Source of the DNA: a bacterium
GTDB lineage: Bacteria > Patescibacteriota > Microgenomatia > UBA1400 > PJMF01
Assembly (NCBI GenBank): GCA_017431625.1
Contig: JAFRKQ010000021.1
Span: forward strand, 13,324-77,323
Length of the DNA: 64,000 nt
Direction: 5' to 3'
Shown: piece after piece, positions 1,692-34,968 of the stretch
Numbering within the stretch: position 1 is the first letter of the stretch
Layout: the number at the start of each line of letters is the position of its first letter
Program-made: the position numbers and the translations under genes
Notes under the pieces: generated by a model
The model's input: the letters and a program-made list of their open reading frames with translations, nothing else
What the model was told of the DNA's origin: nothing
Database searches by the model: none

Positions 1692-1756
1692 GTTCCCCGA
1701 TAGCGTCATCTACTATTATAATAGTAGTATCTTTATGCTGAAAAATTGGCTGATTA

Positions 1757-3157: not shown

Positions 3158-3159
3158 AA

Positions 3160-3507
3160 CTAAAACCTCAGGCTACTCAGACACAAAATCCCGACCACCG
3201 AGACGAGATTGTTGAAGGTGGACAATTCCAGGGCCTGATGAAAATCATCACAAATACTCCAGCGAAAAAACCACGCTTCCAGCAAAATAATCGCTGTCTG
3301 AGTGGCTAGCAGCATCGCCAGCCACCACTCCAGACCTCGACGACTCACCAAACTCATGACGACCACAAAAAGCGGATTGGTCAGAAGATTACCCACCAAA
3401 ACCACCAGTTGTTCGCGCCAGGTGTGTTTGTCCAGCAGCCAGCTTGTTCCCGCCTCAAACACAATCGTTAGTAATAAACTTTTCACTAGATTTATCAGCG
3501 CGAACAT
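3160..3507 (-). CDS. Small hydrophobic membrane protein
   Basis: ORF 3160..3570. Probable start at MFALINLV (compl. 3505-3507). 3-4 predicted TM helices. Sits immediately upstream of the 466-aa ORF on the same strand. Confidence 0.45.
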   Translation of the reverse strand: MFALINLVKSLLLTIVFEAGTSWLLDKHTWREQLVVLVGNLLTNPLFVVVMSLVSRRGLEWWLAMLLATQTAIILLEAWFFRWSICDDFHQALELSTFNNLVSVVGILCLSSLRF

Positions 3508-3882: not shown

Positions 3883-6800
3883 TTGTTATCACAATTCGAT
3901 TTGAATCTGGATAAGCCAGTAGCAGAAGGTGAGAGGCAAGACCAGAGCGAAAGTATCCAGACTGTTTATAACGATGGAAAAGTTGAAAAGCAGATTCTTG
4001 ACTGTTTGTTCCGAGGTGATGCTCCCGCGACAATAGAAGACAATACTGGGGTAGTGTTTCATAATTTTACGAATGCCCGGGAAAATTTACTCAATTGGTA
4101 TCCATTTAATAAGAATGCTGAGATTCTAGAGGTCGGTGCGGGTATGGGTGGCCTAACCGGTTTATTATGTGATCGGGTAGCTCATGTAACTGCTTTAGAG
4201 AACGCTCCACAGCGTGCTGATATTATTAGGATGCGTTATGCAGAAAAGAAAAATTTAACAGTAATTACTGGCAATTTGGCAGATATTGATAAAAATAGCA
4301 AGTTTGATTATATTTTGGTAGTAGGAGTACTTGAATACGTAGACATTGGAAAATCGTCCGGCAGACAAGCACATTTGGATTTTCTATCTCAAGTGAAACT
4401 CATGTTAAAACCAGGAGGGATTTTGTTGCTGGCAATCGAAAATAGATTTGGTTTGAAGTACTGGTGCGGTGCGGCTGAAGATCACATTGGCAAGCCTTTT
4501 GTTGGTATTGAAGGTTATAAAGATAGTTATACAACTAGATATCAATCGCGAGGTGTAACAACTTTTGACAAGCAATCATTAGCTGATTTATGCAAAGAAG
4601 TGGGTTTGGTTTATCAGCGTTGGTATTACCCTCTTGCTGATTATAAATTTCCCACAGCGATCTTTAGTGATGACAAATTACCTAGTTTAAGTGATATTGC
4701 CAGAATTAAGTTCACTTACCCTCAAGAGTCGACACTGATAGCCGATGAGAGAGAACTTTACCGTGAAATAATTAGTAATGATGTATTTCCTTTTTTTGCC
4801 AATTCTTTTTTATTAGAGACATCGACAACTGATTTACCCAGCGATAATGTAATGTGTGCATTCTTAAAGCGTGATTATGCTGCTCAATATCGGCTAGCCA
4901 CTATTTTCATGCGCGATACGGTAGAAAAAGTGGCTTTGAATGGCAAGGCTAAAAATCATTTAAACGAATTAATTAACAATACCAATGCGATTAAAAAAAG
5001 AGGCGTGCCAATTTTGGAAGGAAAATTATTAGATGAGCGCTGGATATTGAAAAAAATATCAATGCCTTTAGCAAATAAAAAAATGGCAGAATGGCTGGAG
5101 CGAGGAGATTTAGCGTCAATTAAAGATTTGTGTGAAAAGTTGGAGACATATTTAAAGAAGTCTTCGCCCTTTTTCAGTGCCAAAAATGTCTACAACTGTG
5201 AACTTGGAGATTTTGTCTTTGACCAGGAAGAAGTGATTTTAGAAGACGGTTATATTGACTTGACCTTTAATAATAGTTTTTATCAAGATAGCGATTTATT
5301 ATTCTTTGATCAGGAGTGGCGTTTAAAAAATGTACCTTTGAAATTTATTCTCTATCGTGCTTTGCTTTATGCTTTTAAAGATAATAGCTTTTTAAGCTTT
5401 GACAAACTTCTAGCGACCGTCAAAATTAATGAAACCATGACACAACAGTTTGCCCGAGCAGAAAAAATAATGTTGTCTTCAATTATGGATGATGAGATGG
5501 TAAAAAGATTCGACAGCGATATGTACCATGAAGGATTAACGTTGAATTATCAAAGAAAACAAGAGTTATCCAACAAACAGGCTCACATTGAAACATTGCT
5601 TGAATCTGAACGCAGTTTAAATCAAATAATTGACAATCAAAAAAAACAATTGACTGATCAAAGCGTGACAATTGACAACCAACATGGTCATATCGAGCAG
5701 CTTCTCGAAAAAGAACGTGCTTGGGAACGAGAGAAAAATTCTAAAGCCTATCAGCTAGCAATGAAGTTTAGTGCCACCTCACAATTTTTCTTGCCAGAAA
5801 AAAGTCGGCGGCGATTTTTATTCAAGGCAGCCAATAAAGTGATTAATGATCCCAGTTTACTACCGAAAGCTTTGGACCCACAACGTTGGCGAGATTACTT
5901 AAGTTTAATGAATAATGGTGAATTTGCGCAAGCAGAAAAGCAACTCGATCAAGCAGCTGTCAATCAGCGAAATGCTAATATCGCTTTAGATGTTTCAAAG
6001 TATGACATTACTCTAGTGACGCCAGAATTGCAACCGATAGGTGTCTACAGACACTTAACGTTCCCGCAAGTCTCTCAGCCTCTAGTTTCGATCATTATCC
6101 CAGTTTATAATCAGTTCAATTACACCTATTATTGTTTGGCATCAATTTTGAAACATACTCAAGACATTGATTATGAGGTAATTATTGCCGATGATTGTTC
6201 GACTGACCTGACTACAGAGATCGCGCAGCTGATAGACAATATAAAGATTGTGAGGACACCCCACAATCTGCGCTTTTTACGTAACTGTAATTATGCGGCC
6301 AAAACAGCACGCGGCAAGTATATATTATTTCTCAATAACGACACCCAGGTACAAGAAAAGTGGTTATCATCACTTTTGGATTTGATTGAAAATGATAAAA
6401 CTATTGGTATGGTGGGATCTAAATTGATTTATCCAGATGGCCGTTTGCAAGAAGCCGGCGGGCTTGTTTGGAATGACGCCAGCGCTTGGAATTACGGCCA
6501 AGGTCAAAATCCAGAGTTACCAGAGTTTAATTACGTGAAAGAATGTGATTATATTTCTGGGGCGGCGATCATGATCAGACATTCCTTGTGGGATGAAATT
6601 GGTGGATTTGATGAGAGATTCGCACCGGCATACTGCGAGGATTCTGATTTAGCTTTTAGCGTCCGTCAACATGGTTTCAAAGTTGTTTTTCAGCCATTAT
6701 CAATAGTGGTACATTTTGAAGGTGTCTCAAATGGCACCGATCTGAGTAGTGGTCAAAAAAAATATCAGGTAGAAAATACGAAAAAGTTTTATCAAAAGTG

Positions 6801-7995
6801 GCAAAAAATATTGCGTGCCGATCAATTTGCCAATGCACAGAATGTTTTCTTGGCTTGCGATCGGAGTCGATATCGACAGCACGTTTTATTTGTGGATCAT
6901 TACGTGCCAATGTATGATCAAGATGCTGGCAGCAAAACGACGTATGCGTACATAAAAATGCTAGCGCAAAAAGGTTTTGCGGTAACTTTTTTAGGTGATA
7001 ACTTTTACCGGCACGAACCATATACGACCGCTCTACAGCAATTAGGCGTACGCGTACTTTACGGCACCCAGGTTGCTAATAATTTAGAGTCTTGGTTTGT
7101 CCATAATGGCAAATATTTTGACATCTTTTATTTAAATCGACCTCATATATCTGTTAAATATTTAGATTTAATCAGAAATTATTCTTCTGGCAAAGTTATT
7201 TATTATGGTCATGATTTACACTTCTTGCGCACTAGACGAGAATATGAGCTCTCTGGTGATGAAAAAAAACTGACGGAAGCGATGGAATGGCAGGAAAAAG
7301 AGCTATCTATTATGCGACGTACTGACATGAATTATTATCCGTCGAGTGTAGAAGTTCAAGAAATTGCCAAGCTGGATCCACAAATACCGGTAAAGGCAAT
7401 TAGCGCCTATATTTTTTCGGCCGCATCAAAAGTCGATTACCAAGCAGCAAAGACCGATGGGATTTTGTTTGTTGGCGGTTTTGCACACGGGCCCAATCTT
7501 GACGCTGTCAAATGGTTTGTGACAAAAATATATCCAGAAATCTATCACCAGACTCATGCTCCTTTTTATATTGTTGGCTCTAAAGCTCCTGAAGAGATTA
7601 AAAGCATTGATGTACCAGGAGTGATTTGTAAAGGTTTTGTAAGCGAAAAAGAGCTTGAGGAGTTATACCAAAGTTGTCGTCTTAGTGTCGCTCCACTGCG
7701 ATACGGAGCAGGTATCAAAGGAAAAGTAATTGAAGCTTTTTATCATGGTAGTCCAATGGTGACAACATCAGTGGGTATTGAAGGAATAGACGGGGCAAGT
7801 GATTTTGTTTGCGTACGCGATCAAGCGATTGATTTTTCCGAAGCCGTGATCAAACTATATCATAATACAGAAAAATTAAACCGCATTTCCAATTTGTCTA
7901 AGCAGTATGTAGAAAATCACTTTAGTGAAAAATCTGCCTGGGAGATAATTAATGATGATTTTGGCAATGCAAACCAAAAAGAAAGATCCAAATGA
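3883..7995 (+). CDS. Multidomain glycan-synthesis enzyme: class I SAM-methyltransferase, coiled coil, GT2 glycosyltransferase, GT4/GT1-type glycosyltransferase (1370 aa)
   Basis: Motif I ILEVGAGMGGLTGLL (MTase). Heptad-like Q/E/K-rich segment at about aa 550-620. GT2 core VSIIIPVYNQ...DYEVIIADDCSTD...CED. C-terminal GT4-like EX7E region EAFYHGSPMVTTSVGIEG. First in-frame start is TTG at 3883 (no upstream ATG), so the start is uncertain. Very AT-rich. Confidence 0.8.
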   Translation: MLSQFDLNLDKPVAEGERQDQSESIQTVYNDGKVEKQILDCLFRGDAPATIEDNTGVVFHNFTNARENLLNWYPFNKNAEILEVGAGMGGLTGLLCDRVAHVTALENAPQRADIIRMRYAEKKNLTVITGNLADIDKNSKFDYILVVGVLEYVDIGKSSGRQAHLDFLSQVKLMLKPGGILLLAIENRFGLKYWCGAAEDHIGKPFVGIEGYKDSYTTRYQSRGVTTFDKQSLADLCKEVGLVYQRWYYPLADYKFPTAIFSDDKLPSLSDIARIKFTYPQESTLIADERELYREIISNDVFPFFANSFLLETSTTDLPSDNVMCAFLKRDYAAQYRLATIFMRDTVEKVALNGKAKNHLNELINNTNAIKKRGVPILEGKLLDERWILKKISMPLANKKMAEWLERGDLASIKDLCEKLETYLKKSSPFFSAKNVYNCELGDFVFDQEEVILEDGYIDLTFNNSFYQDSDLLFFDQEWRLKNVPLKFILYRALLYAFKDNSFLSFDKLLATVKINETMTQQFARAEKIMLSSIMDDEMVKRFDSDMYHEGLTLNYQRKQELSNKQAHIETLLESERSLNQIIDNQKKQLTDQSVTIDNQHGHIEQLLEKERAWEREKNSKAYQLAMKFSATSQFFLPEKSRRRFLFKAANKVINDPSLLPKALDPQRWRDYLSLMNNGEFAQAEKQLDQAAVNQRNANIALDVSKYDITLVTPELQPIGVYRHLTFPQVSQPLVSIIIPVYNQFNYTYYCLASILKHTQDIDYEVIIADDCSTDLTTEIAQLIDNIKIVRTPHNLRFLRNCNYAAKTARGKYILFLNNDTQVQEKWLSSLLDLIENDKTIGMVGSKLIYPDGRLQEAGGLVWNDASAWNYGQGQNPELPEFNYVKECDYISGAAIMIRHSLWDEIGGFDERFAPAYCEDSDLAFSVRQHGFKVVFQPLSIVVHFEGVSNGTDLSSGQKKYQVENTKKFYQKWQKILRADQFANAQNVFLACDRSRYRQHVLFVDHYVPMYDQDAGSKTTYAYIKMLAQKGFAVTFLGDNFYRHEPYTTALQQLGVRVLYGTQVANNLESWFVHNGKYFDIFYLNRPHISVKYLDLIRNYSSGKVIYYGHDLHFLRTRREYELSGDEKKLTEAMEWQEKELSIMRRTDMNYYPSSVEVQEIAKLDPQIPVKAISAYIFSAASKVDYQAAKTDGILFVGGFAHGPNLDAVKWFVTKIYPEIYHQTHAPFYIVGSKAPEEIKSIDVPGVICKGFVSEKELEELYQSCRLSVAPLRYGAGIKGKVIEAFYHGSPMVTTSVGIEGIDGASDFVCVRDQAIDFSEAVIKLYHNTEKLNRISNLSKQYVENHFSEKSAWEIINDDFGNANQKERSK

Positions 7996-8999
7996 TTATT
8001 ACGCAAACTCCATTTCGGATGTCTTTTTTTGGCGGTGGAACTGACTTTCCCGAATTTTTTCGTGAGCATGGTGGCAGCGTAATATCGTCTACTTTTGATA
8101 AGTATGCATATGTAAACGTCCGCCATTTGCCGCCATTTTTTGATTATACTAGTGAAATATCTTATTCAAAACTAGAACGGGTAAAAAGTGTTAATGAGAT
8201 TGAGCATCCGGCAGTGCGTGAAACCATGAAATATCTAGATATGCATGATTTGCGTATCTCATATGAAGCTGATTTACCAGCACGTTCCGGCTTGGGGACA
8301 AGTAGCTCTTTTGTCGTGGGGATGTTACATGCTTTCTATGCGCTTAAAGGCAAATACGCAAGCAAAAAGCATTTAGCTGACGACGCAATTTATTTAGAAA
8401 GAGAACTGTGCAAAGAGACAGGCGGTATCCAAGACCAAATTGCTGTCAGTTTTGGCGGTTTTAACAGAATTAATTTTGATGTTAAAGGTTACAGTGTCAA
8501 TCCCATTATTATTTCTCCTAGTCGTTTGCAGCAGCTAAATGATTCCTTACTACTTTATTTCACTGGTTTTTCTCGTATTTCTGCTGATATTCAAGTGCAG
8601 ACACAAAAAAATCTCAAAAATAATACGAATACATTACTAGAAATGCTAGAATTAGTGGATGAAGCCGAAAAAATTCTTACTAGCAAAACGAATTTAGATG
8701 AATTTGGACGGCTGCTTGATTATACTTGGAAATTAAAACGCGGTTTGACGGATAAGGTTTCTACTGGTTGCATAGATGATATTTACGCTGAGGCACTCAA
8801 AGCCGGCGCTTTGGGAGGCAAACTCTTGGGAGCTGGCGGTGGTGGCTTCTTACTCTTTTATGTTGCACCAGAAAAGCATGCTCAAGTAAAAGAATGTTTG
8901 TCGCGTTTATTGTATGTGCCTTTTTGTTTTGAAACTGGTGGCACACGTGTTATTCACTACACGCCAGAAATTTATGATGATCGTGGAGAGGATAAGTAA
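7992..8999 (+). CDS. hddA: GHMP-family sugar kinase, D-glycero-D-manno-heptose 7-phosphate kinase (HddA-like)
   Basis: GHMP motif PARSGLGTSSSFVVGML. The N-terminus (MSFFGGGTDFPEFF) fits HddA. ATGA overlap with the upstream stop. Confidence 0.75.
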   Translation: MIITQTPFRMSFFGGGTDFPEFFREHGGSVISSTFDKYAYVNVRHLPPFFDYTSEISYSKLERVKSVNEIEHPAVRETMKYLDMHDLRISYEADLPARSGLGTSSSFVVGMLHAFYALKGKYASKKHLADDAIYLERELCKETGGIQDQIAVSFGGFNRINFDVKGYSVNPIIISPSRLQQLNDSLLLYFTGFSRISADIQVQTQKNLKNNTNTLLEMLELVDEAEKILTSKTNLDEFGRLLDYTWKLKRGLTDKVSTGCIDDIYAEALKAGALGGKLLGAGGGGFLLFYVAPEKHAQVKECLSRLLYVPFCFETGGTRVIHYTPEIYDDRGEDK

Positions 9000-10279
9000 T
9001 GAAAAAACCTCCTGCAGTAATCATGGCTGGTGGCAAAGGAACACGAATCGCAGCGATAAACGCAACTGTGCCTAAACCAATGATAGAGATTGCTGACAAA
9101 CCAATCTTGCAATATGAGTTGGAAGTGCTGTCGCGACAAGGCTATCGTGATGTTACTATTGTTACGGGACATCTCGGCCATGCAATCCAAGAATATTTTG
9201 GTGACGGCAGCAGTTTTGATTTGCAAATTAACTATCTGCACGAAAAAGAACCTTTAGGCACAGCGGGTGCGCTTTATTGGTTAAAAGGTAAAGTCTCTAC
9301 CGATTTCTTGTTGCTTAATGCGGATATTATTTTTGATGTCGATCTGGATCGTTTTTACCGTTATCACCAAGCACAAAAAACGACAGCGACGATTTTGACC
9401 CATCCTAACGCTCATCCCTATGACAGTGCAATTATTGCTGCAGACAAAAATAACATTGCAACTGCTTGGTTACATAAAGAAGACACACGACTCTGGTATC
9501 GCAACCGCGTCAATGCTGGGTTGCACTTTTTATCGCCTTCTGTTTTCGCGAGCTATAAAACTCTAGAAAAAAAAGACTTGGATCGAGATATTCTCAAACC
9601 ATTAATTGAAACCCACCAACTAAGTGTCTATGACTCTCCAGAATACGTCAAAGATATGGGTACGCCTGATCGCTATGAAAATGTAATCAAAGATCTACGC
9701 GATGGCTTAGTAGCAGCAAGAAATCTCAATCGGCGACAAAAAGCAATCTTTTTGGATCGTGACGGCACTTTAAATAAAGATGCTGGCTTTTTGACAAATA
9801 TTGACCAGCTGGAATTAATTCCTGGAGCGAGCGAAGCAGTAAAGTTAATTAATGATAGCGGTTACTTAGCAATTGTCGTCACCAATCAACCAGCAATAGC
9901 GCGTGGAGAATTAACTATTGCACAGTTGGATTTGATTCATCAAAAATTGGAAACTTTATTGGGGCAAGATGGCGCTTATCTTGACGCTATTTATTATTGC
10001 CCACATCATCCAGATAAAGGTTTTTCTGGAGAACGACCAGAATATAAAATTGAGTGTGAGTGTCGCAAACCAAAGCCAGGAATGCTGCTGCAAGCAGCTA
10101 GACATTTTAATATTGATTTGTCATCATCTTGGATGATTGGTGATAGTATTAAAGATATTGAAGCCGGAAAGGCAGTCAATTGTTACACTGCACTTTTGAG
10201 TAAAGAGCAAGCGAATATACAGCCAGATTTGTCGGCACGCGATTTATTGTCAGCAGTCAAAAAGATATTGGACAAATAG
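8999..10279 (+). CDS. Bifunctional heptose-1-phosphate nucleotidyltransferase (HddC-like) fused to D,D-heptose 1,7-bisphosphate phosphatase (GmhB, HAD family)
   Basis: N-terminal MAGGKGTRIA...GTAGALY nucleotidyltransferase. C-terminal AIFLDRDGTLN (HAD motif I) plus the Zn-finger signature CPHHPD...CECRKPKPGML typical of GmhB. Confidence 0.8.
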   Translation: MKKPPAVIMAGGKGTRIAAINATVPKPMIEIADKPILQYELEVLSRQGYRDVTIVTGHLGHAIQEYFGDGSSFDLQINYLHEKEPLGTAGALYWLKGKVSTDFLLLNADIIFDVDLDRFYRYHQAQKTTATILTHPNAHPYDSAIIAADKNNIATAWLHKEDTRLWYRNRVNAGLHFLSPSVFASYKTLEKKDLDRDILKPLIETHQLSVYDSPEYVKDMGTPDRYENVIKDLRDGLVAARNLNRRQKAIFLDRDGTLNKDAGFLTNIDQLELIPGASEAVKLINDSGYLAIVVTNQPAIARGELTIAQLDLIHQKLETLLGQDGAYLDAIYYCPHHPDKGFSGERPEYKIECECRKPKPGMLLQAARHFNIDLSSSWMIGDSIKDIEAGKAVNCYTALLSKEQANIQPDLSARDLLSAVKKILDK

Positions 10280-10282
10280 AAT

Positions 10283-10924
10283 ATGTCACAAAATAAATAT
10301 TTAGCTGAATTACTTATAAGATATCCGAGATTAGCGGCTTGCGAAAACAGTGTTTACCAAACATATCAAATGTTACTAGATAGTTTTGCCAATCAACATA
10401 AACTTCTTGTAGCTGGCAATGGGGGAAGTTGCGCTGACGCAGAGCATTTAGTGGGTGAATTGATGAAAGGCTTTTGTTTACCGCGACTTTTAGATGAACA
10501 ACAAAAGCAGAAGTTAATAAGCATTGATGATGAAATCGGTAAAACTTTAGGTAAAAAATTACAAGGTGCTCTTCCCACTCTCGCACTAACAAATCACAAT
10601 GCATTAAATACAGCTTATCTTAATGATGTTGATGGACTTTATATTTACGCGCAACAGGTTTACGGCTACGGCCAAGTTGGCGACGTCTTTTTGGGGATTA
10701 GCACTTCAGGCAATTCTAAAAACATCCTTAATGCAGCCGTAACGGCAAAAGCAAAACAGCTAAAAGTGATTGGTTTAACGGGGGAAAATGGTGGTAGATT
10801 AAAAGATTATTGTGATGTCTGTATCTGTGTGCCAGAAACGGAAACATTTAAAGTCCAAGAATTGCATTTGCCAGTTTATCATTGTTTAGCATTGATGTTG
10901 GAAGAGAAGTTTTTTGGAAAGTGA
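10283..10924 (+). CDS. gmhA: Sedoheptulose-7-phosphate isomerase (SIS domain)
   Basis: LVAGNGGSCADAEHLVGEL, ISTSGNS and QELHL motifs match the GmhA consensus. Confidence 0.85.
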   Translation: MSQNKYLAELLIRYPRLAACENSVYQTYQMLLDSFANQHKLLVAGNGGSCADAEHLVGELMKGFCLPRLLDEQQKQKLISIDDEIGKTLGKKLQGALPTLALTNHNALNTAYLNDVDGLYIYAQQVYGYGQVGDVFLGISTSGNSKNILNAAVTAKAKQLKVIGLTGENGGRLKDYCDVCICVPETETFKVQELHLPVYHCLALMLEEKFFGK

Positions 10925-10962
10925 TATGAAAAACCGAACGCTATGTACTCCAGGATCATAAT

Positions 10963-13809
10963 ATGCTAACACTTAAAAAGTTTTATTTGACACATTTTCT
11001 TAACAAAAAACAGATACGAGATTTGCTGGAATTCTTATCAGTTATACTTGCCATTAATATCCTAATAATTATCGGCGTGAAAAATGGGCTTTTTTTTCTA
11101 GAAAGTGGTGTACTCTATCGAGACGTCCCTGTTTATAAGTTTGCCGATAGTCTCAAAAGTGGCGACGATAGCGTAGAACAAGAGTTTATTCCTAAGATGC
11201 CAGGGCTTACGAGAATTGATATCAGATTGGCCTATGCAGGTAATATTGAGGATGATCATGCACAAGCACTTTTAACTTTAAGCGACGATGAGGGGAATAT
11301 TTTATCTGAACATATTGTTACTGGAGATAATTTTGAAAACTGGCGCTATTTTAGTATAGACGCTAGGGGCTTGCAATGTGGACACAAGTATGTCATCAAA
11401 ATGCAACAACAATCACAGAATTTGACTCCAGACGGCGATTTTGCAACTTCGTGGGCTCCTTTTGTTTATGAAGCCGATGAAATCCTATCCAAGGATAAAA
11501 CTTTTCCTCAAGAGAATCTCACTAGTTATTATAATCATGCAGTACGTAATTACCATTGGGACATTCATTATGTCTATGGAAGAACAGTTTATCTATATAT
11601 GCTTTTTATTGATATAATAGTGTTTAGCGTGTATATACTGGGGTCTATTTTTTTAAAACACATGGCTCTGCAAAAAAAGAAACAATGTTTAAATTCAGAT
11701 ATAAAAACGATCACAAATGCCATTTTGATTAGCAATTGCTTAGTGGCTAGTTATTTAATTTATGTTGTTTATGTTTGGTTTCTTGAGTTAGTAGATTTTG
11801 TTTGCTATTTTTTTCAGTGGCCGCAAGCGACACCAATTTCTCGCATTATGGTGGCTTCTTTTACTATGTTACTAGTCTTTTTCTGCAAAAGAAAGAAAGC
11901 GTTTATCGTGGGAAGGTTGTCCTTTAATTGGAAATTATTGCTGGCCATTGTATTTTTTATCCTGCTGAGTGCGACCAAAATTGTGTATCCAGATACTAGT
12001 GCGGATACCTTTAATTATCATTTATTGGCACAGCAGCCGGGATTTGTAAACTATTTTAAACAAGGTTTTGGCGCAGGGGGATTTCAGGTGTGGGGTTTCC
12101 GCCTTGGAGATCGTTTATATTATCCATTTCGAGTGTTGCTGGGGTATAGGTTGGGGACTGTTTTAAATACCATAGTTGTCATAATCATCTACTTACAACT
12201 AGTTCTTATTATGCAAACATTTACTAAGGACAATGTGCGAAAGTTCTGTTTGTCTCCTGAAATGTTTGCTTTACTTTTACTGGCCACGCAGTGGGACACT
12301 CTATTAATGATGGGCATATACTATGTGGATATTTTATCTATCCCTTTAATTTTGGAAGCATTTAGAATACTTGCTTCTCATGAAAATGAGAAAATAAATA
12401 CAACTAAAATAATTTACTTGTCTTTTCTACTGGGGTTTGCTTTTGCCTTCAAAATGACGAATATTGCATTTGTGTTACCATTGGGAATGGTTTTATTGGT
12501 AAAATCTTGGAAAAAAATTACGCCCGTTAGCTTTATTGTCGCCGGTCTTGCTTGTGTTTTACCGGTTAGTATTTATTTAATATTTAATTTTGTTTGTACA
12601 CGTAATCCAGTTTTCCCTTATTATAACAAGATTTTCCGATCTCCATATTTTAAGATCGCAAATTTTAAAGATAATAGATGGGGCGGGAGTGACACCAAGC
12701 AACAACTACTCTGGTTTTATCATATCGTAAAGCACCCAGAAAGCCGCGTTTCGGAAATTAATAATCCTAACACTACATTCATACTATTTTCACTATTTGC
12801 GTTCATTTTGCTACTTTCTTTGGTTGTATATTATCACTGGAGGAAGCGTTATACTTACAAATCATTCTTCACGTATATTGGCATGATTATATTTTCATAT
12901 TTGATTTGGACATTTTCAACTGGTTATCCGCGCTACTATATTGGCGGTTTTATATTATGGGGATTGGCAATTTATTTATGCCTTTATTTATTTTCCCAAA
13001 AAAATTTACTTGTAACTAATGTACTTAGTGTTATGTTCATTGTTGTTTCATTGCTAATTGCCAAAGACGAGGCGTGGACAGTTGTTGTCGCCGGTCATGA
13101 ATGGTCATGGCGTCAATTCTCTATGGCCACATACAAGATACAATTACCATTGATATTCCATGACAAAATATGGTATTTGCCTGATAATCAAGAATTTCCT
13201 GATAAATTTATTTTGACTGAGGCAACCACGGGGGACGTCGTTTTAGCTAACCCGCGGGCTTCTATCATAGCCTTATATTATCAACGTTGGCTGGATAATC
13301 AGGAAACTATAAACGATCTTCACAATAAAGCAAAACAAGCATTAAATTCGAGAGGATATATCATTTTAAGAAGTGCTAAGAATCTAAAAGCGATTATTGA
13401 CGAACTAAATAAGTATAGTTTATACTTAAATGATATACAGATGATATATACCAATCAGGCTCAGCGTTATTTAGGATTGGTAGAAAGACTTATGGATGCA
13501 ACCAACTCAGGCGAATTAGTTACAGATGATTTTCATACTACATTAAATATTAAACCAAACCGCAATAATGTAAATTTTATATATGTATGTATTACATCCA
13601 ATGAAGGAGGAAATTGCGATTATCATGTCACTCTATCTCAAGATAATGCAGTAGTTTATGAAGAAAATATTAATATAGGAAAAGATCAAACTGGAAAATT
13701 AGATATGAATATATCTGAAGAAGTGTCACCAGACACCCTAGACGTTTCTATTATGAACAATCGAGCTAATAGCTCTGGCAGTCAATTGGCAATCATCAAC
13801 TTGCACTAA
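10963..13809 (+). CDS. Large polytopic membrane protein (948 aa, >12 predicted TM helices plus a C-terminal soluble domain). Possible GT-C-type glycosyltransferase, oligosaccharyltransferase or polymerase
   Basis: ATG at 10963. Long hydrophobic helices throughout aa 200-700, then a hydrophilic ~250-aa C-terminal domain. AT-rich. No catalytic motif recognised, so the functional call is by context. Confidence 0.6.
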   Translation: MLTLKKFYLTHFLNKKQIRDLLEFLSVILAINILIIIGVKNGLFFLESGVLYRDVPVYKFADSLKSGDDSVEQEFIPKMPGLTRIDIRLAYAGNIEDDHAQALLTLSDDEGNILSEHIVTGDNFENWRYFSIDARGLQCGHKYVIKMQQQSQNLTPDGDFATSWAPFVYEADEILSKDKTFPQENLTSYYNHAVRNYHWDIHYVYGRTVYLYMLFIDIIVFSVYILGSIFLKHMALQKKKQCLNSDIKTITNAILISNCLVASYLIYVVYVWFLELVDFVCYFFQWPQATPISRIMVASFTMLLVFFCKRKKAFIVGRLSFNWKLLLAIVFFILLSATKIVYPDTSADTFNYHLLAQQPGFVNYFKQGFGAGGFQVWGFRLGDRLYYPFRVLLGYRLGTVLNTIVVIIIYLQLVLIMQTFTKDNVRKFCLSPEMFALLLLATQWDTLLMMGIYYVDILSIPLILEAFRILASHENEKINTTKIIYLSFLLGFAFAFKMTNIAFVLPLGMVLLVKSWKKITPVSFIVAGLACVLPVSIYLIFNFVCTRNPVFPYYNKIFRSPYFKIANFKDNRWGGSDTKQQLLWFYHIVKHPESRVSEINNPNTTFILFSLFAFILLLSLVVYYHWRKRYTYKSFFTYIGMIIFSYLIWTFSTGYPRYYIGGFILWGLAIYLCLYLFSQKNLLVTNVLSVMFIVVSLLIAKDEAWTVVVAGHEWSWRQFSMATYKIQLPLIFHDKIWYLPDNQEFPDKFILTEATTGDVVLANPRASIIALYYQRWLDNQETINDLHNKAKQALNSRGYIILRSAKNLKAIIDELNKYSLYLNDIQMIYTNQAQRYLGLVERLMDATNSGELVTDDFHTTLNIKPNRNNVNFIYVCITSNEGGNCDYHVTLSQDNAVVYEENINIGKDQTGKLDMNISEEVSPDTLDVSIMNNRANSSGSQLAIINLH

Positions 13810-14548: not shown

Positions 14549-15799
14549 ATGCTCGAAATCAAACGTGACTACTATCTGCGCCAACTGATCGCCCAGCGTG
14601 GCTCTAGTTTCATCAAAATCATTACTGGCTTGCGCCGTGCCGGCAAATCCTACTTGCTCGATCCAATTTTTCGCCAATTCTTACTTCAAGATGGCGTCGC
14701 GCCGGATCATATCATTCACCTCAATTTGGAAGAGTTTGAAAACCGCTGCTTGCTTGACCCCTCCGCATTATTCACTTTTGTCAAAAAACAAATCGCCGAT
14801 AGTCAAACTTATTACGTGCTCCTCGATGAAATCCAACTTGTGCCCGGTTTCGAGTCCATTCTCTCCAGTTTTCTCCACCTAGACAATCTCGACGTTTACG
14901 TGACTGGCAGTAACTCACGTTTCTTGTCTTCAGACGTCATCACTCAATTTCGCGGCCGTGGCACCCAAATTCACCTGTATCCACTCAGCTTTGGCGAAAT
15001 TTATGCCGCCTTAGGCGGTGATAAATACGAGCTCTGGGAGCGTTATTACCGTTACGGTGGCTTGCCGCAAGTGGTCCAGCAGCCCGATGACCAAGCCCGG
15101 ATCTCCTTTTTAGAAGCACAAAAAGACAATGTTTATCTCAATGACTTAATAGAACGTTATCGTATCCGCAATAGTGACAGTCTGGGTATCCTCAGTAGTG
15201 TCATCGCTTCAGACGTGGGTGCGCTCACCAACCCCCACAAACTCGAGCGCACCTTCAAAAGCAAAATTGGTGTCGACCTAAGCTACCACAAAATCGAGGA
15301 TTATTTAGAAAAACTCCAAAACGCTTTTTTAATCGAAAAATCTAAACGTTTTGACGTCAAAGGCAAACGTTATATTGATACTCCGGTAAAATACTACTTT
15401 ACTGATCCCGGCATTCGCAACGCTTTCGTTGATTTCCGCCAAACAGAAGAATCTCATCTGATGGAAAATATTATCTATAATGAACTCCGCCGCCGCGGAT
15501 TCAAAGTCGATGTCGGCACGGTCGAAACCAGAGGGGAAAATGGCACTCGCCAACAATTAGAGGTGGATTTTGTCGCGAGAAAGGCCGATAATACATATTA
15601 TATTCAATCAGCCCTCACGATCGGTGATAGTGCCAAAAGATACCAAGAATCACGCTCGCTAGATCACATTAATGATCACTTCAGCAAGATCATCATCGCC
15701 AAAGATACTTTTGCTCCCGGCCACGAGCGCAACGGCATTGCTACCATCGGTCTTTTTGGCTTTTTACTCGATGACAAAATCCTAGATAAATATCAATAG
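14549..15799 (+). CDS. AAA+ ATPase of the COG1373 / AAA_14 + DUF4143 family (paralog 1)
   Basis: Walker A GLRRAGKSYLL. Walker B YVLLDEIQ. The length and C-terminal half are consistent with DUF4143-type proteins. ATG at 14549 with TTATAAT 7 nt upstream. Confidence 0.7.
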   Translation: MLEIKRDYYLRQLIAQRGSSFIKIITGLRRAGKSYLLDPIFRQFLLQDGVAPDHIIHLNLEEFENRCLLDPSALFTFVKKQIADSQTYYVLLDEIQLVPGFESILSSFLHLDNLDVYVTGSNSRFLSSDVITQFRGRGTQIHLYPLSFGEIYAALGGDKYELWERYYRYGGLPQVVQQPDDQARISFLEAQKDNVYLNDLIERYRIRNSDSLGILSSVIASDVGALTNPHKLERTFKSKIGVDLSYHKIEDYLEKLQNAFLIEKSKRFDVKGKRYIDTPVKYYFTDPGIRNAFVDFRQTEESHLMENIIYNELRRRGFKVDVGTVETRGENGTRQQLEVDFVARKADNTYYIQSALTIGDSAKRYQESRSLDHINDHFSKIIIAKDTFAPGHERNGIATIGLFGFLLDDKILDKYQ

Positions 15800-16140: not shown

Positions 16141-16192
16141 TTGACAATTATTCTAATAGTGATCTAATCACTAAGAAAGGTTGAAAACTATT

Positions 16193-17545
16193 ATGAAAAG
16201 GCTTATCTACGATCAGCTGCTTGAGTGGAAAAACACTGATCAAGGTCGGCACGCTGTATTAATTGAAGGCGCGCGACGTGTTGGCAAAAGTTACATTACC
16301 AATGATTTTGGCAATGACAATTACGCTTCTTACCTCACAATCGACTTTTCGGCCACTACCGATGAAATCCGTGATCTTTTTTATAACTATCTTGATCACC
16401 TTGACGATTTTTTTCACCTGCTGACCAATTATTATCAAGTTAAACTTTTTCATCGCCAGTCACTGATTATTTTTGATGAAGTTCAACATTTTCCTCGTGC
16501 CCGCGAGGCCATAAAGCGCCTTGTTGCTGACGGACGCTATGATTACATCGAAACTGGCTCCTTGATTTCCATCAAACAAAACGTCAAAGACATCCTCATA
16601 CCGTCTGAAGAAAGAAAACTAACTATGAGGCCCATGAATTTTCAAGAATTTTGCTTGGCGACCAATAATCAAATGCTTTGGGAATATATCTGCGATTGTT
16701 TCGCACAAAAAAAATCTCTGACACCACCAATGCATCGACGTGCCATGAATGTTTTTCGCCAATACCTAATTGTTGGTGGCCTGCCTCAAGCAGTAGCTGC
16801 TTTTATTAAATCTCAAGATTATACCCTAGTAGACCACGAAAAAAGAGCTATTCTTGATCTTTATCGCAATGATATTAGCAAATTTAGCGATTCAATTCGT
16901 TTTAAGGTAGAAAAAATTTTTGACGATATTCCCTCTCAACTTCAGCGACATGAAAAAAAATTTAATTTGGCCGACATTGATTACAATGCTCGCTTGCGAG
17001 AATATGACGATGCCTTTTATTGGTTGCTTGATGCAGGTTTGATCAATATTGCTTATAATACCACCGAACCAAATTTGGGTCTCAATCTTGCAAAAGATGA
17101 CCGGTATTTCAAGTGTTATCTGTTTGATACAGGTTTACTTTTAGCTATGACTTTTAATGAAAAAGAAATTGCCCGCGAAGAAATATACAAAAAGATTCTT
17201 TTCAACAAACTCGAATTTAACCAAGGCATGATTATGGAAAACCTTATCGCCCAAATGTTACGCTCAAGCGGACATCATCTTTTCTTTTATGTCAAACATG
17301 ATCGTGGTGATAATAATGAAAACATGGAGGTTGATTTTCTTTTGTCTAAAAATGTTATCACCAATAAGCACAATATTATCCCGATCGAGGTCAAAACTGG
17401 TGTTAGATACACTTACAAATCACTGCGCAAATTCTCTCAAAAATATCAGCAATTTGTCACCAAACCAATTATTATTCACCAAAATGATTTGCAAATTGAC
17501 AATGGCATTCTCTATTTGCCCGCTTACATGGCCGAGTTGCTTTAA
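16193..17545 (+). CDS. AAA+ ATPase of the COG1373 / AAA_14 + DUF4143 family (paralog 2)
   Basis: Walker A GARRVGKSYIT. Walker B IIFDEVQ. SD-like AAGAAAGG 12 nt before the ATG at 16193. The ORF track starts at TTG 16181. Confidence 0.7.
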   Translation: MKRLIYDQLLEWKNTDQGRHAVLIEGARRVGKSYITNDFGNDNYASYLTIDFSATTDEIRDLFYNYLDHLDDFFHLLTNYYQVKLFHRQSLIIFDEVQHFPRAREAIKRLVADGRYDYIETGSLISIKQNVKDILIPSEERKLTMRPMNFQEFCLATNNQMLWEYICDCFAQKKSLTPPMHRRAMNVFRQYLIVGGLPQAVAAFIKSQDYTLVDHEKRAILDLYRNDISKFSDSIRFKVEKIFDDIPSQLQRHEKKFNLADIDYNARLREYDDAFYWLLDAGLINIAYNTTEPNLGLNLAKDDRYFKCYLFDTGLLLAMTFNEKEIAREEIYKKILFNKLEFNQGMIMENLIAQMLRSSGHHLFFYVKHDRGDNNENMEVDFLLSKNVITNKHNIIPIEVKTGVRYTYKSLRKFSQKYQQFVTKPIIIHQNDLQIDNGILYLPAYMAELL

Positions 17546-29308: not shown

Positions 29309-30370
29309 TTAGTATTGCGGCAAAAAGATTTTGGAATTTTCTGGTGTCACCCAAATTTCTGTGTAACCTTGTTCCACCATAATGCGCACGGCTTTGCGCA
29401 CCATATTTTCTAGTGTTCGCTCCAGTGTCCGGATACCCATGTCATAACCCAAAGGACGAATAATTTTGTGCCAGAGTGATTCATCAATGTGAATTTGTTC
29501 TGCTTTGATACCGGCATTGGAATAGAGTCGTGGCAAAATATAATTTTTGGCGATCATTTCTTTTTCGTAATCAGTATAAGAAGGCATAGAAATTTTTTCC
29601 ATCCGGTCCATCACGGCGGTCGCAATTTTGGTGGTATTATTGGCCGTTGCCAAAAAAATGGCTTGCGACAAATCCACCGGATAGTCAATATAGGTATCAG
29701 TAAACGCTTGATTCTGCGCCGGATCCAAAAGTTCCACCAGCACACCCATAATATCCATCAGGGCACTTTCGGCAACACGATCAATTTCATCAAGCAAAAA
29801 AATCGGATTGCGCACCCCCGACTCACACAAACCTTTGATAATTTTTCCTGGCTCTGCTTCCAGCTGGAGACGTGACCAACCACGTAACTCTCGTGCCGAG
29901 CCCATACCGCCAAAAGGAATCCGGACAATATAGCGACCCAAAGCCTCAGCTAGCGAATAAGCAAAAGTGGTCTTGCCCGTACCTACCAAACCCACCAAAA
30001 GCAAAATTGGCGCTCGATAGGCTTTGCCCGGAGCTTGTTGGTTTTGCAATTTCAAAATGGAGACATATTCCAAGAAGCGATTTTTCACTTCCATCATGCC
30101 GTAGTGATGTGAGTCAAAAATGCGCCTGGTTTCATTGATATCGAGCCGGTCACGCGTGACTTTATTCCATGGGATCCGCACCAGCCAGTCGATGTAGTGA
30201 GTCACCATCTCGTATTTTTCGTCATAATTACCAAAATCCATTGACCGCTCGAGACTGACAATATCACGTTCGGCTTTTTTTTGCACCTCCAAAGGCAACT
30301 TCGCGGCTTGCACTCGCGCTTTGAGTTCATTGATTTCCTGGACCACGTATTGATTAATCTTCTCTGACAT
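29309..30370 (-). CDS. Lon-like AAA+ ATPase module lacking the Lon N-domain and the C-terminal protease domain
   Basis: YIDWLVRIPWN...HYGMMEVKNRFLEY...GLVGTGKTT...GGMGSARELRGWSRLQLEAEPGKIIKG...IFLLDEIDR aligns with the LonA linker + AAA+ + alpha-helical subdomain. The ORF stops where the protease domain would begin. TATAAT promoter at compl. 30377-30392. Confidence 0.75.
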   Translation of the reverse strand: MSEKINQYVVQEINELKARVQAAKLPLEVQKKAERDIVSLERSMDFGNYDEKYEMVTHYIDWLVRIPWNKVTRDRLDINETRRIFDSHHYGMMEVKNRFLEYVSILKLQNQQAPGKAYRAPILLLVGLVGTGKTTFAYSLAEALGRYIVRIPFGGMGSARELRGWSRLQLEAEPGKIIKGLCESGVRNPIFLLDEIDRVAESALMDIMGVLVELLDPAQNQAFTDTYIDYPVDLSQAIFLATANNTTKIATAVMDRMEKISMPSYTDYEKEMIAKNYILPRLYSNAGIKAEQIHIDESLWHKIIRPLGYDMGIRTLERTLENMVRKAVRIMVEQGYTEIWVTPENSKIFLPQY

Positions 30371-30415
30371 GACTGGTATATTATATCCTATTTGCCGGCA
30401 AAATGCGAGGCAATT

Positions 30416-30958
30416 TTACTTGGCCAAACACTCCTCAATTGTGGGCACTATCGCTTGAGGATCAATGGTTGGCTCAAAACGAGCCACTACTTGTCCGTGT
30501 CTGTCGACAACAAATTTGGTAAAATTCCACTTAATATCCGGGCTTTCTTTCCAGTGAGGATCCATTTTGGCGACAATAGGAATTAAAATTTTACCGGCAA
30601 GATTGAAGCCACCAAAACCTTGTTGACTTTTAAGATAAGCATAAAGCGGTGCTTGACGCTCACCATTGACCTCAATTTTGGCTAGTTGATCAAAAGAGGT
30701 ACGGTATTTGAGAGTGCAAAACTCATGAATCTCATCATTACTGCCCGGAGCTTGATGGCCAAATTGATCACAAGGAAAATCCAAAATCTCCAAACCCTGA
30801 TCATGATAACGCTCATAAAGAGCCTGTAAACCCTTATATTGTGGCGTAAAACCACAGCCGGTAGCGGTATTAACAATCAAGAGCACTTTGCCTGCCAAAT
30901 CATGCAAATCAAGCTGACTACCATCACGCTTGTCCACCTTAAAATCATAAATGGTCAT
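30416..30958 (-). CDS. Glutathione peroxidase-family thiol peroxidase
   Basis: VNTATGCGFT catalytic Cys motif. FPCDQFGHQ. KWNFTKF(V/L)VDR. Confidence 0.85.
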   Translation of the reverse strand: MTIYDFKVDKRDGSQLDLHDLAGKVLLIVNTATGCGFTPQYKGLQALYERYHDQGLEILDFPCDQFGHQAPGSNDEIHEFCTLKYRTSFDQLAKIEVNGERQAPLYAYLKSQQGFGGFNLAGKILIPIVAKMDPHWKESPDIKWNFTKFVVDRHGQVVARFEPTIDPQAIVPTIEECLAK

Positions 30959-33439: not shown

Positions 33440-34750
33440 TCATGATTGAAGCGTATTAATCACTTGCGCCAGGTTGAGGCTTTCCTGAGCGCCAGTGACG
33501 AGATTTTTGAGGCTTAGCTTTTTTTGCGCCAGCTCATCATCGCCTATAATTAGGGCATAAGCTACCCCCAGATCAGCCGCGTGTTTGAGGGCCTTTTTCA
33601 TCCCTCCCGCCTCCAAATAAACTTCAGTAGCAATCCCACTTTGCCGCAAGGCATTCACAATATCGTGCAAGTGGTCAAGCTGTGCGGTCAGTGGCACCAC
33701 TACAACTTGACTGATGGTTTTTTGTTCCAAAGACACTAAACCCGCCGCCAACGCTTGCGCCAAAAGGCGTGTCAGCCCAATTGAACACCCCACTCCTGGC
33801 ATTTTGGTTTTGCCATAATTACCCACCAAATTGTCATAGCGACCACCAGAACAAATCGAACCCAAAGACACGTGATCCAGCAAGATCGTTTCGTATATCA
33901 TACCGGTATAATAATCCAAGCCCCGAATAATCCCCATATTGAATTGATACTCCGCCGGATCCAACCGCAAGGCCTCTAAGTGTTGACTTAAGCGGTGCAA
34001 TTCTTCCAGCCCTTCGTTGAAGAGCGCATTATCAACGTCCAGGCGCAAAAGCAACTGCGAGACCTGATGAAAATTACCGTGAATTTGAGCAAATTTGGTA
34101 ATTTTTCGGATTTCAAAAGTGTCCAGACGTAAAAGTCTTAATTCCTCTTGCAATTTCTTGGGACCGATTTTGTCTGCATCATCCAAAAGCTGAATTATCG
34201 CCTTCTGATCCATGACCTTGAGCGCTGACAAAAAGCCCATCACAATTTTGCGATTGCTAATTTGTAATTGAAAACTGCCCAGCTCCAAGCGCTTCACGGT
34301 CTGGGCGGCCAGCGCCAAAATCTCAGCGTCAGCACTCGACGACAAACTGCCACGGCCAATAATGTCAGCATCGGCTTGATAAAATTCACGAAAACGGCCC
34401 ATTTGCGCCCGTTCACCACGAAAAACAGGGCCAATTGCTTGACGACGAAAAGGAAAAGCCAACTCATTTTGGTGTAAGGCCACAAAACGAGCCAAAGGCA
34501 CCGTCAGATCAAAACGCAAGGCCAATTGCGTCTCACCCTTAGCAAAGCGATAGATTTGCTTGCCCGTGGACGCGCCGGCTTTGGCCATCAAGACCTCGGC
34601 GCGCTCGATTGTCGGTGTTTCCAGTGGCGTATAGCCAAAAAGTCCATAACTTTCTCTCACTGTTTGCTTCCAGCGCTCAAAAATCAACTGGGCGGCTGGT
34701 GGCCACTCCGGCATTCCAGATAAAGGTTGTAGATTTAGCTTTTCACTCAT
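33440..34750 (-). CDS. hisS: Histidine--tRNA ligase
   Basis: Class II aaRS motifs (FRGERAQMGRFREFYQ, GGRYD) and a C-terminal anticodon-binding domain. Start set to MSEKLNLQ (compl. 34748-34750) because the longer ORF would overlap the tRNA-Gly gene. Confidence 0.9.
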   Translation of the reverse strand: MSEKLNLQPLSGMPEWPPAAQLIFERWKQTVRESYGLFGYTPLETPTIERAEVLMAKAGASTGKQIYRFAKGETQLALRFDLTVPLARFVALHQNELAFPFRRQAIGPVFRGERAQMGRFREFYQADADIIGRGSLSSSADAEILALAAQTVKRLELGSFQLQISNRKIVMGFLSALKVMDQKAIIQLLDDADKIGPKKLQEELRLLRLDTFEIRKITKFAQIHGNFHQVSQLLLRLDVDNALFNEGLEELHRLSQHLEALRLDPAEYQFNMGIIRGLDYYTGMIYETILLDHVSLGSICSGGRYDNLVGNYGKTKMPGVGCSIGLTRLLAQALAAGLVSLEQKTISQVVVVPLTAQLDHLHDIVNALRQSGIATEVYLEAGGMKKALKHAADLGVAYALIIGDDELAQKKLSLKNLVTGAQESLNLAQVINTLQS

Positions 34751-34810
34751 GCCGCTTATTATATCACAAGCACACAAAAAATCGACCGTTGTTTGCTTGT
34801 CGCAAATGGG

Positions 34811-34827
34811 CAATTGTGTGGTATAAT
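34811..34827 (+). promoter_or_regulatory. Promoter for tRNA-Gly (TTGTGTGGTATAAT)
   Basis: Canonical extended -10, 16 nt upstream of the tRNA 5' end. Confidence 0.55.
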
Positions 34828-34843
34828 AAGAGCTGTTCTTTAT

Positions 34844-34914
34844 GCAGGATTGGTGCATCGGTAGCACGCTAGCTTCCCAAGCTGGAGAGGTCAGTCCGAC
34901 TCTGATATCCTGCT
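34844..34914 (+). tRNA. tRNA-Gly (anticodon CCC), atypical T-loop
   Basis: Acceptor GCAGGAT/ATCCTGC. D-arm GTGC-ATCGGTA-GCAC. Anticodon arm CTAGC-TTCCCAA-GCTGG (U33, A37). T-arm GTCAG-TCCGACT-CTGAT with C at position 55. Discriminator U. Has its own promoter and terminator. Confidence 0.65.
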
Positions 34915-34931
34915 CGGCATACCTATCACTT

Positions 34932-34968
34932 TCGCCCAAGGGAAACCTTGGGCGAATTTTTTTATTTT
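34932..34968 (+). terminator. Rho-independent terminator after tRNA-Gly
   Basis: CGCCCAAGG-GAAA-CCTTGGGCG followed by TTTTTTTATTTT. Confidence 0.8.

Follow-up and report, generated by a model that had tools for sequence, protein, structure and literature searches.

A stand-alone Lon-type AAA+ ATPase without substrate-binding and protease domains, conserved in Patescibacteria

The stretch of DNA analysed here, 64,000 nucleotides (nt) of contig JAFRKQ010000021.1 (positions 13,324 to 77,323) from a bacterium of the Microgenomatia lineage of Patescibacteriota, is referred to below as the window. On its minus strand it contains a gene whose product, 353 amino acids (aa) long, is confirmed to be a Lon-derived AAA+ module on its own, without the N-terminal substrate-binding domain and without the protease domain that accompany this module in the ATP-dependent protease LonA. 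The protein is one of a large and strongly conserved family of similarly built ATPases, which forms a clade of its own next to LonA and is able to coexist with it. The features of the gene are as follows (EcLon, residue of E. coli Lon).

29309..30370, minus strand: coding sequence of the stand-alone Lon-type AAA+ ATPase, 353 aa, ATG start, stop codon included (list of open reading frames, ORFs; Pfam AAA and Lon_lid; partial TIGR00763; PDB LonA matches; AlphaFold2; Foldseek)
30146..30370, minus strand: N-terminal three-helix bundle, aa 1-75, with YIDW...PW, equivalent to LonA ~245-310 (aligned to E. coli Lon 244-304; AlphaFold2 helices 2-22, 27-46 and 49-65)
29585..30145, minus strand: AAA+ alpha/beta nucleotide-binding subdomain, aa 76-262 (Pfam AAA, residues 123-260; AlphaFold2 strand/helix pattern)
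29966..29992, minus strand: Walker A GLVGTGKTT, aa 127-135, invariant in the family; the LonA counterpart is GPPGVGKTS
29846..29884, minus strand: pore-loop-1 region RGWSRLQLEAEPG, aa 163-175, with invariant R163, G164, R167, L168, L170, P174 and G175 (motif table of 62 sequences)
29777..29803, minus strand: Walker B IFLLDEIDR, aa 190-198, with invariant D194 and E195
29636..29650, minus strand: sensor-1 ATANN, aa 241-245; N244 = EcLon N473 (alignment; residue role per PMC9569914)
29597..29611, minus strand: arginine finger MDRME, aa 254-258; R256 = EcLon R484 (alignment; residue role per PMC9569914)
29351..29584, minus strand: alpha-helical lid subdomain (Lon_lid), aa 263-340 (Pfam Lon_lid, residues 285-335; alignment; AlphaFold2)
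29423-29437, minus strand: sensor-2 GIRTL within the lid; R314 = EcLon R542 (alignment; residue role per PMC9569914)
29309..29350, minus strand: C-terminal tail TPENSKIFLPQY, aa 341-353 and stop codon, homologous to the LonA AAA-to-protease linker (E. coli Lon alignment; N345, I348, F349 and P351 invariant, Y353 in at least 90%)

A preliminary description of the gene had proposed that it encodes only the LonA-like linker (the three-helix bundle), AAA+ core and lid, and every search agrees with this. Pfam detects the AAA and Lon_lid domains in the 353-aa protein and nothing else; LON_substr_bdg (PF02190) and Lon_C (PF05362) have no match in it even at E ≤ 1, Lon_C being the domain whose absence that description had suggested checking. 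The NCBIfam model TIGR00763 ('lon') is matched with E = 1.1e-91, but the match is restricted to positions 253-571 of the 795 in the profile, and its score, 308.5 bits, is about half the curated cutoff of 608 bits; NCBIfam has no dedicated model for the stand-alone family. The best sequence match in PDB is B. subtilis LonA (3m6a, E = 7e-69, query residues 12-350), followed by LonA from Thermus, E. coli, Yersinia and Meiothermus and by human LONP1, all spanning ~10-350 of the query. In a confident AlphaFold2 model, for which 36 sequences of the family were used (mean predicted local distance difference test, pLDDT, 88.1; predicted TM-score, pTM, 0.79), three N-terminal helices are followed by the alpha/beta core and then by the helical lid. 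When this model is compared with PDB by Foldseek, the top 50 matches are all LonA or LONP1, and the isolated AAA+ fragment of E. coli Lon (6n2i) aligns with it nearly end to end (TMq 0.86, TMt 0.90). A better fit to RuvB or another AAA+ family had been named as a possible alternative; Lon scores best with Pfam, NCBIfam and Foldseek alike, and RuvB_N has no Pfam match at E ≤ 1, as compared to E of 1e-91 for the Lon models.

For the genome in which the gene resides, the searches covered the 64-kb window, and for its relatives, the loci around the gene. When complete E. coli Lon (from NC_000913.3) was run by tblastn against the six frames of the window, the sole match was that of Lon residues 254-579 at 29321-30325. 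Neither the N-domain (Lon residues 1-245) nor the protease (585-784) is matched in any frame of the window, and no frameshifted continuation of lon, the event that could have revealed a full-length gene, was found beside the ORF or elsewhere in the window. The protein ends with ...PENSKIFLPQY, which in the alignment with E. coli Lon is the end of the linker, where the protease domain would begin, so that the clean stop at this boundary, claimed earlier, is borne out. The same is true of the claim that no protease-domain ORF is adjacent: the downstream neighbour is a convergent ORF for a membrane or pilin-like protein of 162 aa, and the upstream neighbour is a same-strand gene for glutathione peroxidase (gpx).

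Proteins of this kind are numerous. The best 120 homologues in a collection of 5.8 billion proteins are 66-95% identical to the query, contain AAA/Lon_lid domains only and are 352-362 aa long, with one exception, a partial sequence of 315 aa. Where they are named, the name is either 'AAA family ATPase' (in Woesebacteria, Pacebacteria, Moranbacteria and 'Patescibacteria group') or 'ATP-dependent Lon protease', assigned automatically at the Joint Genome Institute (JGI); since there is no protease domain, the latter label would overstate the proteolytic repertoire of the candidate phyla radiation (CPR). When family loci were retrieved from the species-representative genomes of GTDB with the peptides GLVGTGKTT and MGVLVELLD, the family was found in at least 579 species genomes of Patescibacteria, chiefly of the Microgenomates type. 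The record titles of these loci include Woese-, Pace- and Cerribacteria, Microgenomates and Patescibacteria, and several of the genomes are single contigs of ~1.1-1.4 Mb. Many patescibacterial metagenome-assembled genomes (MAGs), e.g. HK-STAS-PATE-15 and -17, are apparently mislabelled in public records as 'uncultured Pseudomonadales bacterium', 'Vitreimonas sp.' or 'Methylococcaceae bacterium' (among loci L011-L086 and proteins P0017 and P0456). The window protein carries all signatures of the family, i.e., a length of ~352 aa, GLVGTGKTT, RGxSRLxLExEPG, MGVLVELLDP, the C-terminal ...KIFLPQY and no further domain, and scores 678 bits against the family hidden Markov model, versus 250-300 bits for LonA.

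More remote relatives came from a phmmer search of 1.84 billion cluster representatives, in which two groups, protease-less proteins and Lon proteases with tandem AAA modules (see below), rank above ordinary full-length LonA (36-40% identity to the query and 225-250 bits among the representatives). Some of the protease-less proteins are ~351-430 aa long; others, of 450-700 aa, have N-terminal extensions, and one has a C-terminal extension, none of them matching a Pfam family. The N-terminal extensions amount to 100-370 aa in P0140 (669 aa), P0139, P0135, P0145, P0146 and P0166, and the C-terminal one to ~190 aa in P0173 (548 aa); all of these could be new substrate-binding or partner domains. 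Those proteins of this group that bear a name come from Dojkabacteria or from unclassified bacteria. The ~352-aa form is characteristic of Microgenomates-type lineages, and divergent forms, some of them N-extended, are found in Dojkabacteria and others; the clade is old and, as far as seen, confined to Patescibacteria/CPR.

Conservation within the family is high. More than 100 columns are invariant in an alignment of 36 family sequences, and in the comparison of the window gene with a 95%-identical ortholog (locus L090) the proportion of synonymous differences (pS) is 0.74, i.e., near saturation, while the nonsynonymous distance (dN) is 0.044, which gives a ratio of nonsynonymous to synonymous change (dN/dS) of ~0.014. 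With an 83%-identical ortholog, dN/dS is ~0.06. Selection on the gene is strongly purifying over this range, and the gene has changed less than a housekeeping gene next to it: in the pair of genomes that share the 95%-identical ortholog, the adjacent gpx protein is merely ~74% identical. Strong conservation in very small genomes usually signals importance.

The ATPase centre is complete in every protease-less sequence: the Walker A Lys and Thr (K133/T134), D194/E195 of Walker B, sensor-1 N244, the arginine finger R256 and sensor-2 R314 are all retained. The sequence blocks quoted in the preliminary description (YIDWLVRIPWN, HYGMMEVKNRFLEY, GLVGTGKTT, GGMGSARELRGWSRLQLEAEPGKI and IFLLDEIDR) are likewise all present in the translation; GGMGSARELRGWSRLQLEAEPGKI, however, had been taken for the sensor region and is in fact the region of pore loop 1. 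This is the segment that has diverged most from LonA. In LonA the loop has the form RGHRRTY(I/V)GA(M/L)PG and is essentially invariant (27 of 27 sequences), whereas all 35 protease-less sequences have a loop of the type RGxSR(L/V/I/F)x(L/P)xxEPG, from which the aromatic Tyr motif is absent. Relative to LonA, the loop of the window protein, of the RGxSRLxLExEPG type, has no aromatic residue, has lost two arginines and has gained acidic residues. The context of Walker A has also changed, from GPPG in LonA to GLVG or GLQG in the protease-less proteins, and the module as a whole is mildly acidic, with an isoelectric point (pI) of ~6.3 versus 8.9 for the AAA module of E. coli Lon. As judged from these alignments, the loss of the protease domain is shown to be accompanied by the swap of the pore-loop-1 Tyr motif for an aliphatic/acidic loop.

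The preliminary description had called for a phylogeny against LonA, and in it the protease-less proteins stand apart. In a neighbour-joining tree of ATPase modules (337 columns, 200 bootstraps) from 62 sequences, namely 20 proteins of the 352-aa type, 15 divergent protease-less proteins, 9 LonA from CPR and 18 other LonA, all protease-less proteins make up one clade in 200 of 200 bootstraps, and the query falls inside it. LonA from CPR make up a clade of their own (172/200), and the protease-less clade is not nested within it. Canonical LonA of ~780-830 aa (N-domain, AAA and Lon_C) is common in the same CPR classes, e.g. Woese-, Pace- and Levybacteria. In three of 88 loci (L085, L086 and L081) a LonA gene is located ~7 kb from the stand-alone gene. 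One of these contigs, L086, encodes an intact LonA of 812 aa with GPPGVGKT, RGHRRTY and the DGPSAG/GGLKEK region of the catalytic dyad, which is merely 35% identical to the stand-alone paralog. The separate clade and the presence of an intact LonA on the L086 contig mark the stand-alone ATPase as a paralog able to coexist with LonA, and not as the remnant of a sole lon gene. The preliminary description had also considered that a full-length lon might exist elsewhere while this ORF fitted another AAA+ family better; the first part holds for related genomes, where lon is a separate paralog, and the second does not. LonA P0456 is located on JACKFX01, and two sibling MAGs, JACKFW01 and JACKFY01, carry the stand-alone gene. 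In L085, from a Woesebacteria MAG, the LonA gene (835-3277, minus strand) is split by a frameshift into ORFs of 399 and 448 aa, which may be an assembly error or a pseudogene.

We favour, with slightly more confidence than doubt, the view that the gene encodes a functional, conserved LonA paralog, made of the three-helix bundle and the AAA+ module, that would act as an ATP-driven ring and a non-degradative remodeller or regulator of specific clients. The stand-alone module would assemble into a ring that hydrolyses ATP, and the ring would then remodel, disassemble or regulate its client(s) without degrading them, rather than serve as one half of a split Lon. A non-degradative role is suggested because there is neither a proteolytic chamber nor an aromatic threading paddle. 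The term 'unfoldase or adaptor', used in the preliminary description, is not established; the missing aromatic residue in all 35 pore loops argues against a classical unfoldase.

Several points weigh against this proposal. Isolated AAA+ modules of LonA generally hexamerise poorly without the protease domain, so that a homomeric ring is not guaranteed, and ring formation, ATPase activity and clients are alike inferred. The loss of Tyr does not exclude translocation, since a polypeptide can still be gripped by aliphatic pore loops. The conserved linker residues N345, I348, F349, P351 and Y353 might serve to dock a partner whose gene lies elsewhere. The tree is a rough one and not model-based, though the split in it is clean, and the genome data consist of 64 kb of the source genome and of loci around the gene in relatives. 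A bolder version of the proposal is possible but tentative: the protein may be a CPR-specific, near-essential machine, independent of LonA, in which a protease motor would have been turned into a non-degradative ATPase with an aliphatic/acidic pore, and which would act on a class of clients other than those of Lon, such as a particular basic protein or a factor of the cell envelope or of division. If true, this would add a new functional branch to the Lon family.

The alternative that survives best, although we regard it as unlikely, is an accessory subunit of LonA, which would enter mixed rings or stack on the LonA ring and tune its activity or choice of substrates, with no function of its own. 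It is in keeping with the frequency of canonical LonA in the same CPR classes, with the LonA genes close by in L085, L086 and L081, and with the retention of the three-helix bundle, arginine finger and sensor residues that make the contacts between Lon subunits; the poor hexamerisation of isolated LonA modules can also be counted in its favour. That extra AAA modules can serve a single Lon_C domain is demonstrated by the tandem-AAA Lon proteases P0121, P0124 and P0126. On the other hand, the two paralogs in L086 have diverged to 35% identity, LonA is in the vicinity in only three loci of the 88, and there is none in the window.

Much less probable is a split Lon, in which the protease domain, and maybe also the N-domain, would be encoded elsewhere and join the ATPase in trans. 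In its favour, the tail that corresponds to the LonA AAA-to-protease linker has been conserved, and the inspected part of the genome is the 64 kb of the window, where no frame encodes Lon_C or an N-domain. In the 88 loci (1.48 Mb in total) there is no stand-alone Lon_C gene within 10 kb either, and Lon_C matches are found only in complete LonA genes. The main argument against the split protease is that the protease domain and the threading motif have been lost together: the Tyr of the substrate-threading pore loop is missing in every member. In addition, the clade is distinct from LonA and coexists with intact LonA.

The genes around the stand-alone ATPase were compared in loci L002-L089 (88-89 loci). 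In most relatives, the gene is part of a co-directional block with the order RpiB-Rpe-LOG-PfkB-(LPXTG-like protein, 177 aa)-LonAAA-UDG-(membrane protein)-RNase J-FtsK, where LonAAA is the stand-alone gene; PfkB is near it in 72 of 89 loci, RNase J in 63 of 89 and UDG in 58 of 89, and FtsK lies within 10 kb in 64 of 88. In most Microgenomates-type genomes the conserved block extends upstream to Suf/NifU. None of the block genes (PfkB, LOG, Rpe, UDG, RNase J, FtsK) is found anywhere in the window, and the block is also wholly missing around the gene in its closest relatives, L090 and L091. In the window and in the closest relative, gpx is followed by LonAAA, and another close relative has glycogen phosphorylase upstream; genes within 10 kb of the window copy have no homologs near the gene at any other locus. 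We rejected the block as functional evidence, as it is a long run of housekeeping genes, including those of the pentose-phosphate pathway, that is absent from the window. Recurrent unannotated neighbours were also rejected as partners: they are membrane or LPXTG-like proteins, or have no matches. In two divergent relatives (L092, 7147-10446; L094, 8218-11372) an FtsA/PilM-like gene and a Baseplate_J-like gene come next after the protease-less gene, with FtsK (L092) or GroES/GroEL (L094) just beyond. The FtsA/PilM-like neighbour was discarded as a candidate partner, for it is near these two relatives and near none of the 88 stand-alone loci. We conclude that the neighbourhood yields no reliable partner.

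The same neighbourhood bears on another alternative that we consider improbable to about the same degree as the split Lon, namely a motor directed at nucleic acids, i.e., a ring on DNA or RNA like RuvB, which is also an AAA+ protein of the HCLR clade. E. coli Lon binds DNA, and the co-directional run of PfkB, LonAAA, UDG, RNase J and FtsK, with FtsK also near the divergent member L092, would agree with such an activity. What speaks against it is the acidic pore loop (LxLEAEPG) together with the low pI of the module, the housekeeping nature of the block, its absence around the gene in the window and in the closest relatives, and the lack of a Pfam RuvB_N match.

Finally, the idea of a degenerate remnant or annotation artefact, a decaying and functionless fragment of lon, could draw on the score below the TIGR00763 cutoff and on the absence of two of the three LonA regions, but is already refuted by the low dN/dS at nearly saturated synonymous sites, by the fixed length and the 100 or more invariant columns in 36 sequences, by the occurrence of the family in at least 579 species genomes and by the lack of flanking lon fragments; together with the separate clade and the intact LonA alongside in L086, these data leave the earlier suggestion that the Lon of this organism is split or degenerate without support.

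Among the known systems, LonA (endopeptidase La; MEROPS S16.001, TIGR00763) is the closest. The fold and domain order are the same as in the E. coli (~245-584, 6n2i) and B. subtilis (3m6a) enzymes (TM 0.80-0.90), the ATPase parts are 33-40% identical, and Walker A and B, sensor-1, the arginine finger, sensor-2, YIDW...PW and LLDPxQN are shared. LonA differs in having the LON_substr_bdg N-domain and the Ser-Lys protease domain Lon_C, both lacking in the stand-alone protein, and in being basic, with GPPG and the RGHRRTY-type pore loop, in place of an acidic module with GLVG and RGxSRLxLExEPG that belongs to a separate clade. A functional analogy is possible with ClpX and HslU, stand-alone hexameric ATPases of the same HCLR clade. 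These have aromatic pore loops and dedicated elements for docking to ClpP or HslV, whereas for the stand-alone Lon-AAA neither a partner peptidase nor an aromatic pore loop has been seen. The tandem-AAA Lon proteases, P0121 (MFC1854773.1, Candidatus Dependentiae), P0122, P0124 and P0126, are chains of 992-1675 aa with two or three tandem AAA+/Lon_lid units and one Lon_C. They have the highest summed phmmer scores to the query in the representative library, with several matched stretches each; like the stand-alone protein they have no LonA N-domain, but unlike it they are fused to Lon_C, and P0121 is from a phylum outside CPR.

LonB and LonBA likewise do without the large LonA N-domain, but they have a protease domain, their pore loops are longer, and a membrane anchor interrupts their AAA+ module (PMC9569914); the stand-alone protein has none of these features, with no insertion in the AAA+ module in our model or alignment and no Lon_C. 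LonC (Lon-like-Ms, MEROPS S16.007) is also a Lon variant in which ATPase and protease are uncoupled, but in the inverse manner: the protease is kept, and ATPase activity is lost through replacement of essential residues of the ATPase centre (PMC9569914), whereas the stand-alone protein keeps all the ATPase residues and has no protease. The protein is thus not a member of LonA, LonB/LonBA, LonC or RuvB; it descends from the ATPase module of LonA. According to a study of Lon subfamilies, every Lon has ATPase and protease domains fused in a single chain, and MEROPS 'non-peptidase homologues' are mentioned there in generic terms only (PMC9569914). A search of the full-text literature turned up neither a protease-less Lon ATPase nor an account of Lon in CPR, which, coverage being incomplete, is absence of evidence only; the family of protease-less Lon ATPases is apparently undescribed. 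Across hundreds of CPR species, then, the Lon motor has been kept without any protease, and its gripping loop has been altered along with the loss. This amounts to a natural experiment on the capabilities of a Lon ATPase ring that lacks proteolysis.

Two elements were noted between the gpx stop codon (30416-30418) and the start of the gene.

30380-30385, minus strand: TATAAT, a -10-like hexamer 9 nt before the ATG, candidate (near-)leaderless promoter (sequence; comparison with L090 and L091)
30392..30401, minus strand: perfect 10-bp palindrome TTGCCGGCAA, between the gpx stop codon and TATAAT (sequence; not conserved in L090 and L091)

The preliminary description had credited the gene with its own TATAAT promoter, carrying part of a conserved element. 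The hexamer is real and plausible as a promoter, and is kept in two relatives; the 'conserved element' could not be identified, and the 14-mer around TATAAT is unique within the window. There is neither a -35 hexamer at the proper distance nor a Shine-Dalgarno sequence upstream of the ATG, and because there is no -35, a consensus promoter scan calls no promoter upstream of the gene. TATAAT also precedes the orthologous ATG by 7 nt in L090 and by 10 nt in L091, the remainder of the spacer having diverged. That the hexamer recurs at a distance of 7-10 nt from the ATG in the three orthologous loci suggests a leaderless transcript, and transcription of the stand-alone gene is probably driven by a -10 element of its own and yields an mRNA without a leader. 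The palindrome TTGCCGGCAA is a candidate weak terminator stem or operator.

In about 10 of the 47 predicted genes of the window, a perfect TATAAT lies 1-9 nt before the start codon, with no Shine-Dalgarno sequence, the start calls being heuristic; such starts are 14549(+), 19130(-), 28536(+), 30370(-), 32734(-), 32752(+), 38243(-), 40047(-) and 62715(+). In gpx, dnaK and other genes of the window, TATAAT is found ~26-32 nt upstream, together with a GGA-rich ribosome-binding site. The arrangement of the former group suggests that leaderless transcripts are frequent here.

Elsewhere in the window, the region 3883-13809 (plus strand) is a block of low GC content, 34-40% as compared to 45-49% in the rest, with a (GA)n run just upstream of 3883. 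What looks like a heptose-type nucleotide-sugar pathway is encoded in the block by genes for a methyltransferase-GT2-GT1 fusion (1370 aa), a GHMP kinase, a nucleotidyltransferase/HAD fusion and a SIS-domain isomerase; the block also contains an ORF of 948 aa with no Pfam match. It is followed by two neighbouring paralogous ATPases with AAA_14 and DUF4143 domains (14549-15799 and 16181-17545, both plus strand). On the other side of the Lon-type gene, a tRNA at 34844-34914 (plus strand; Rfam, 52 bits) overlaps the 5' end of the histidyl-tRNA synthetase ORF, as called by greatest length, at 33440-34939 (minus strand); the TTG start of the synthetase ORF is probably over-extended.

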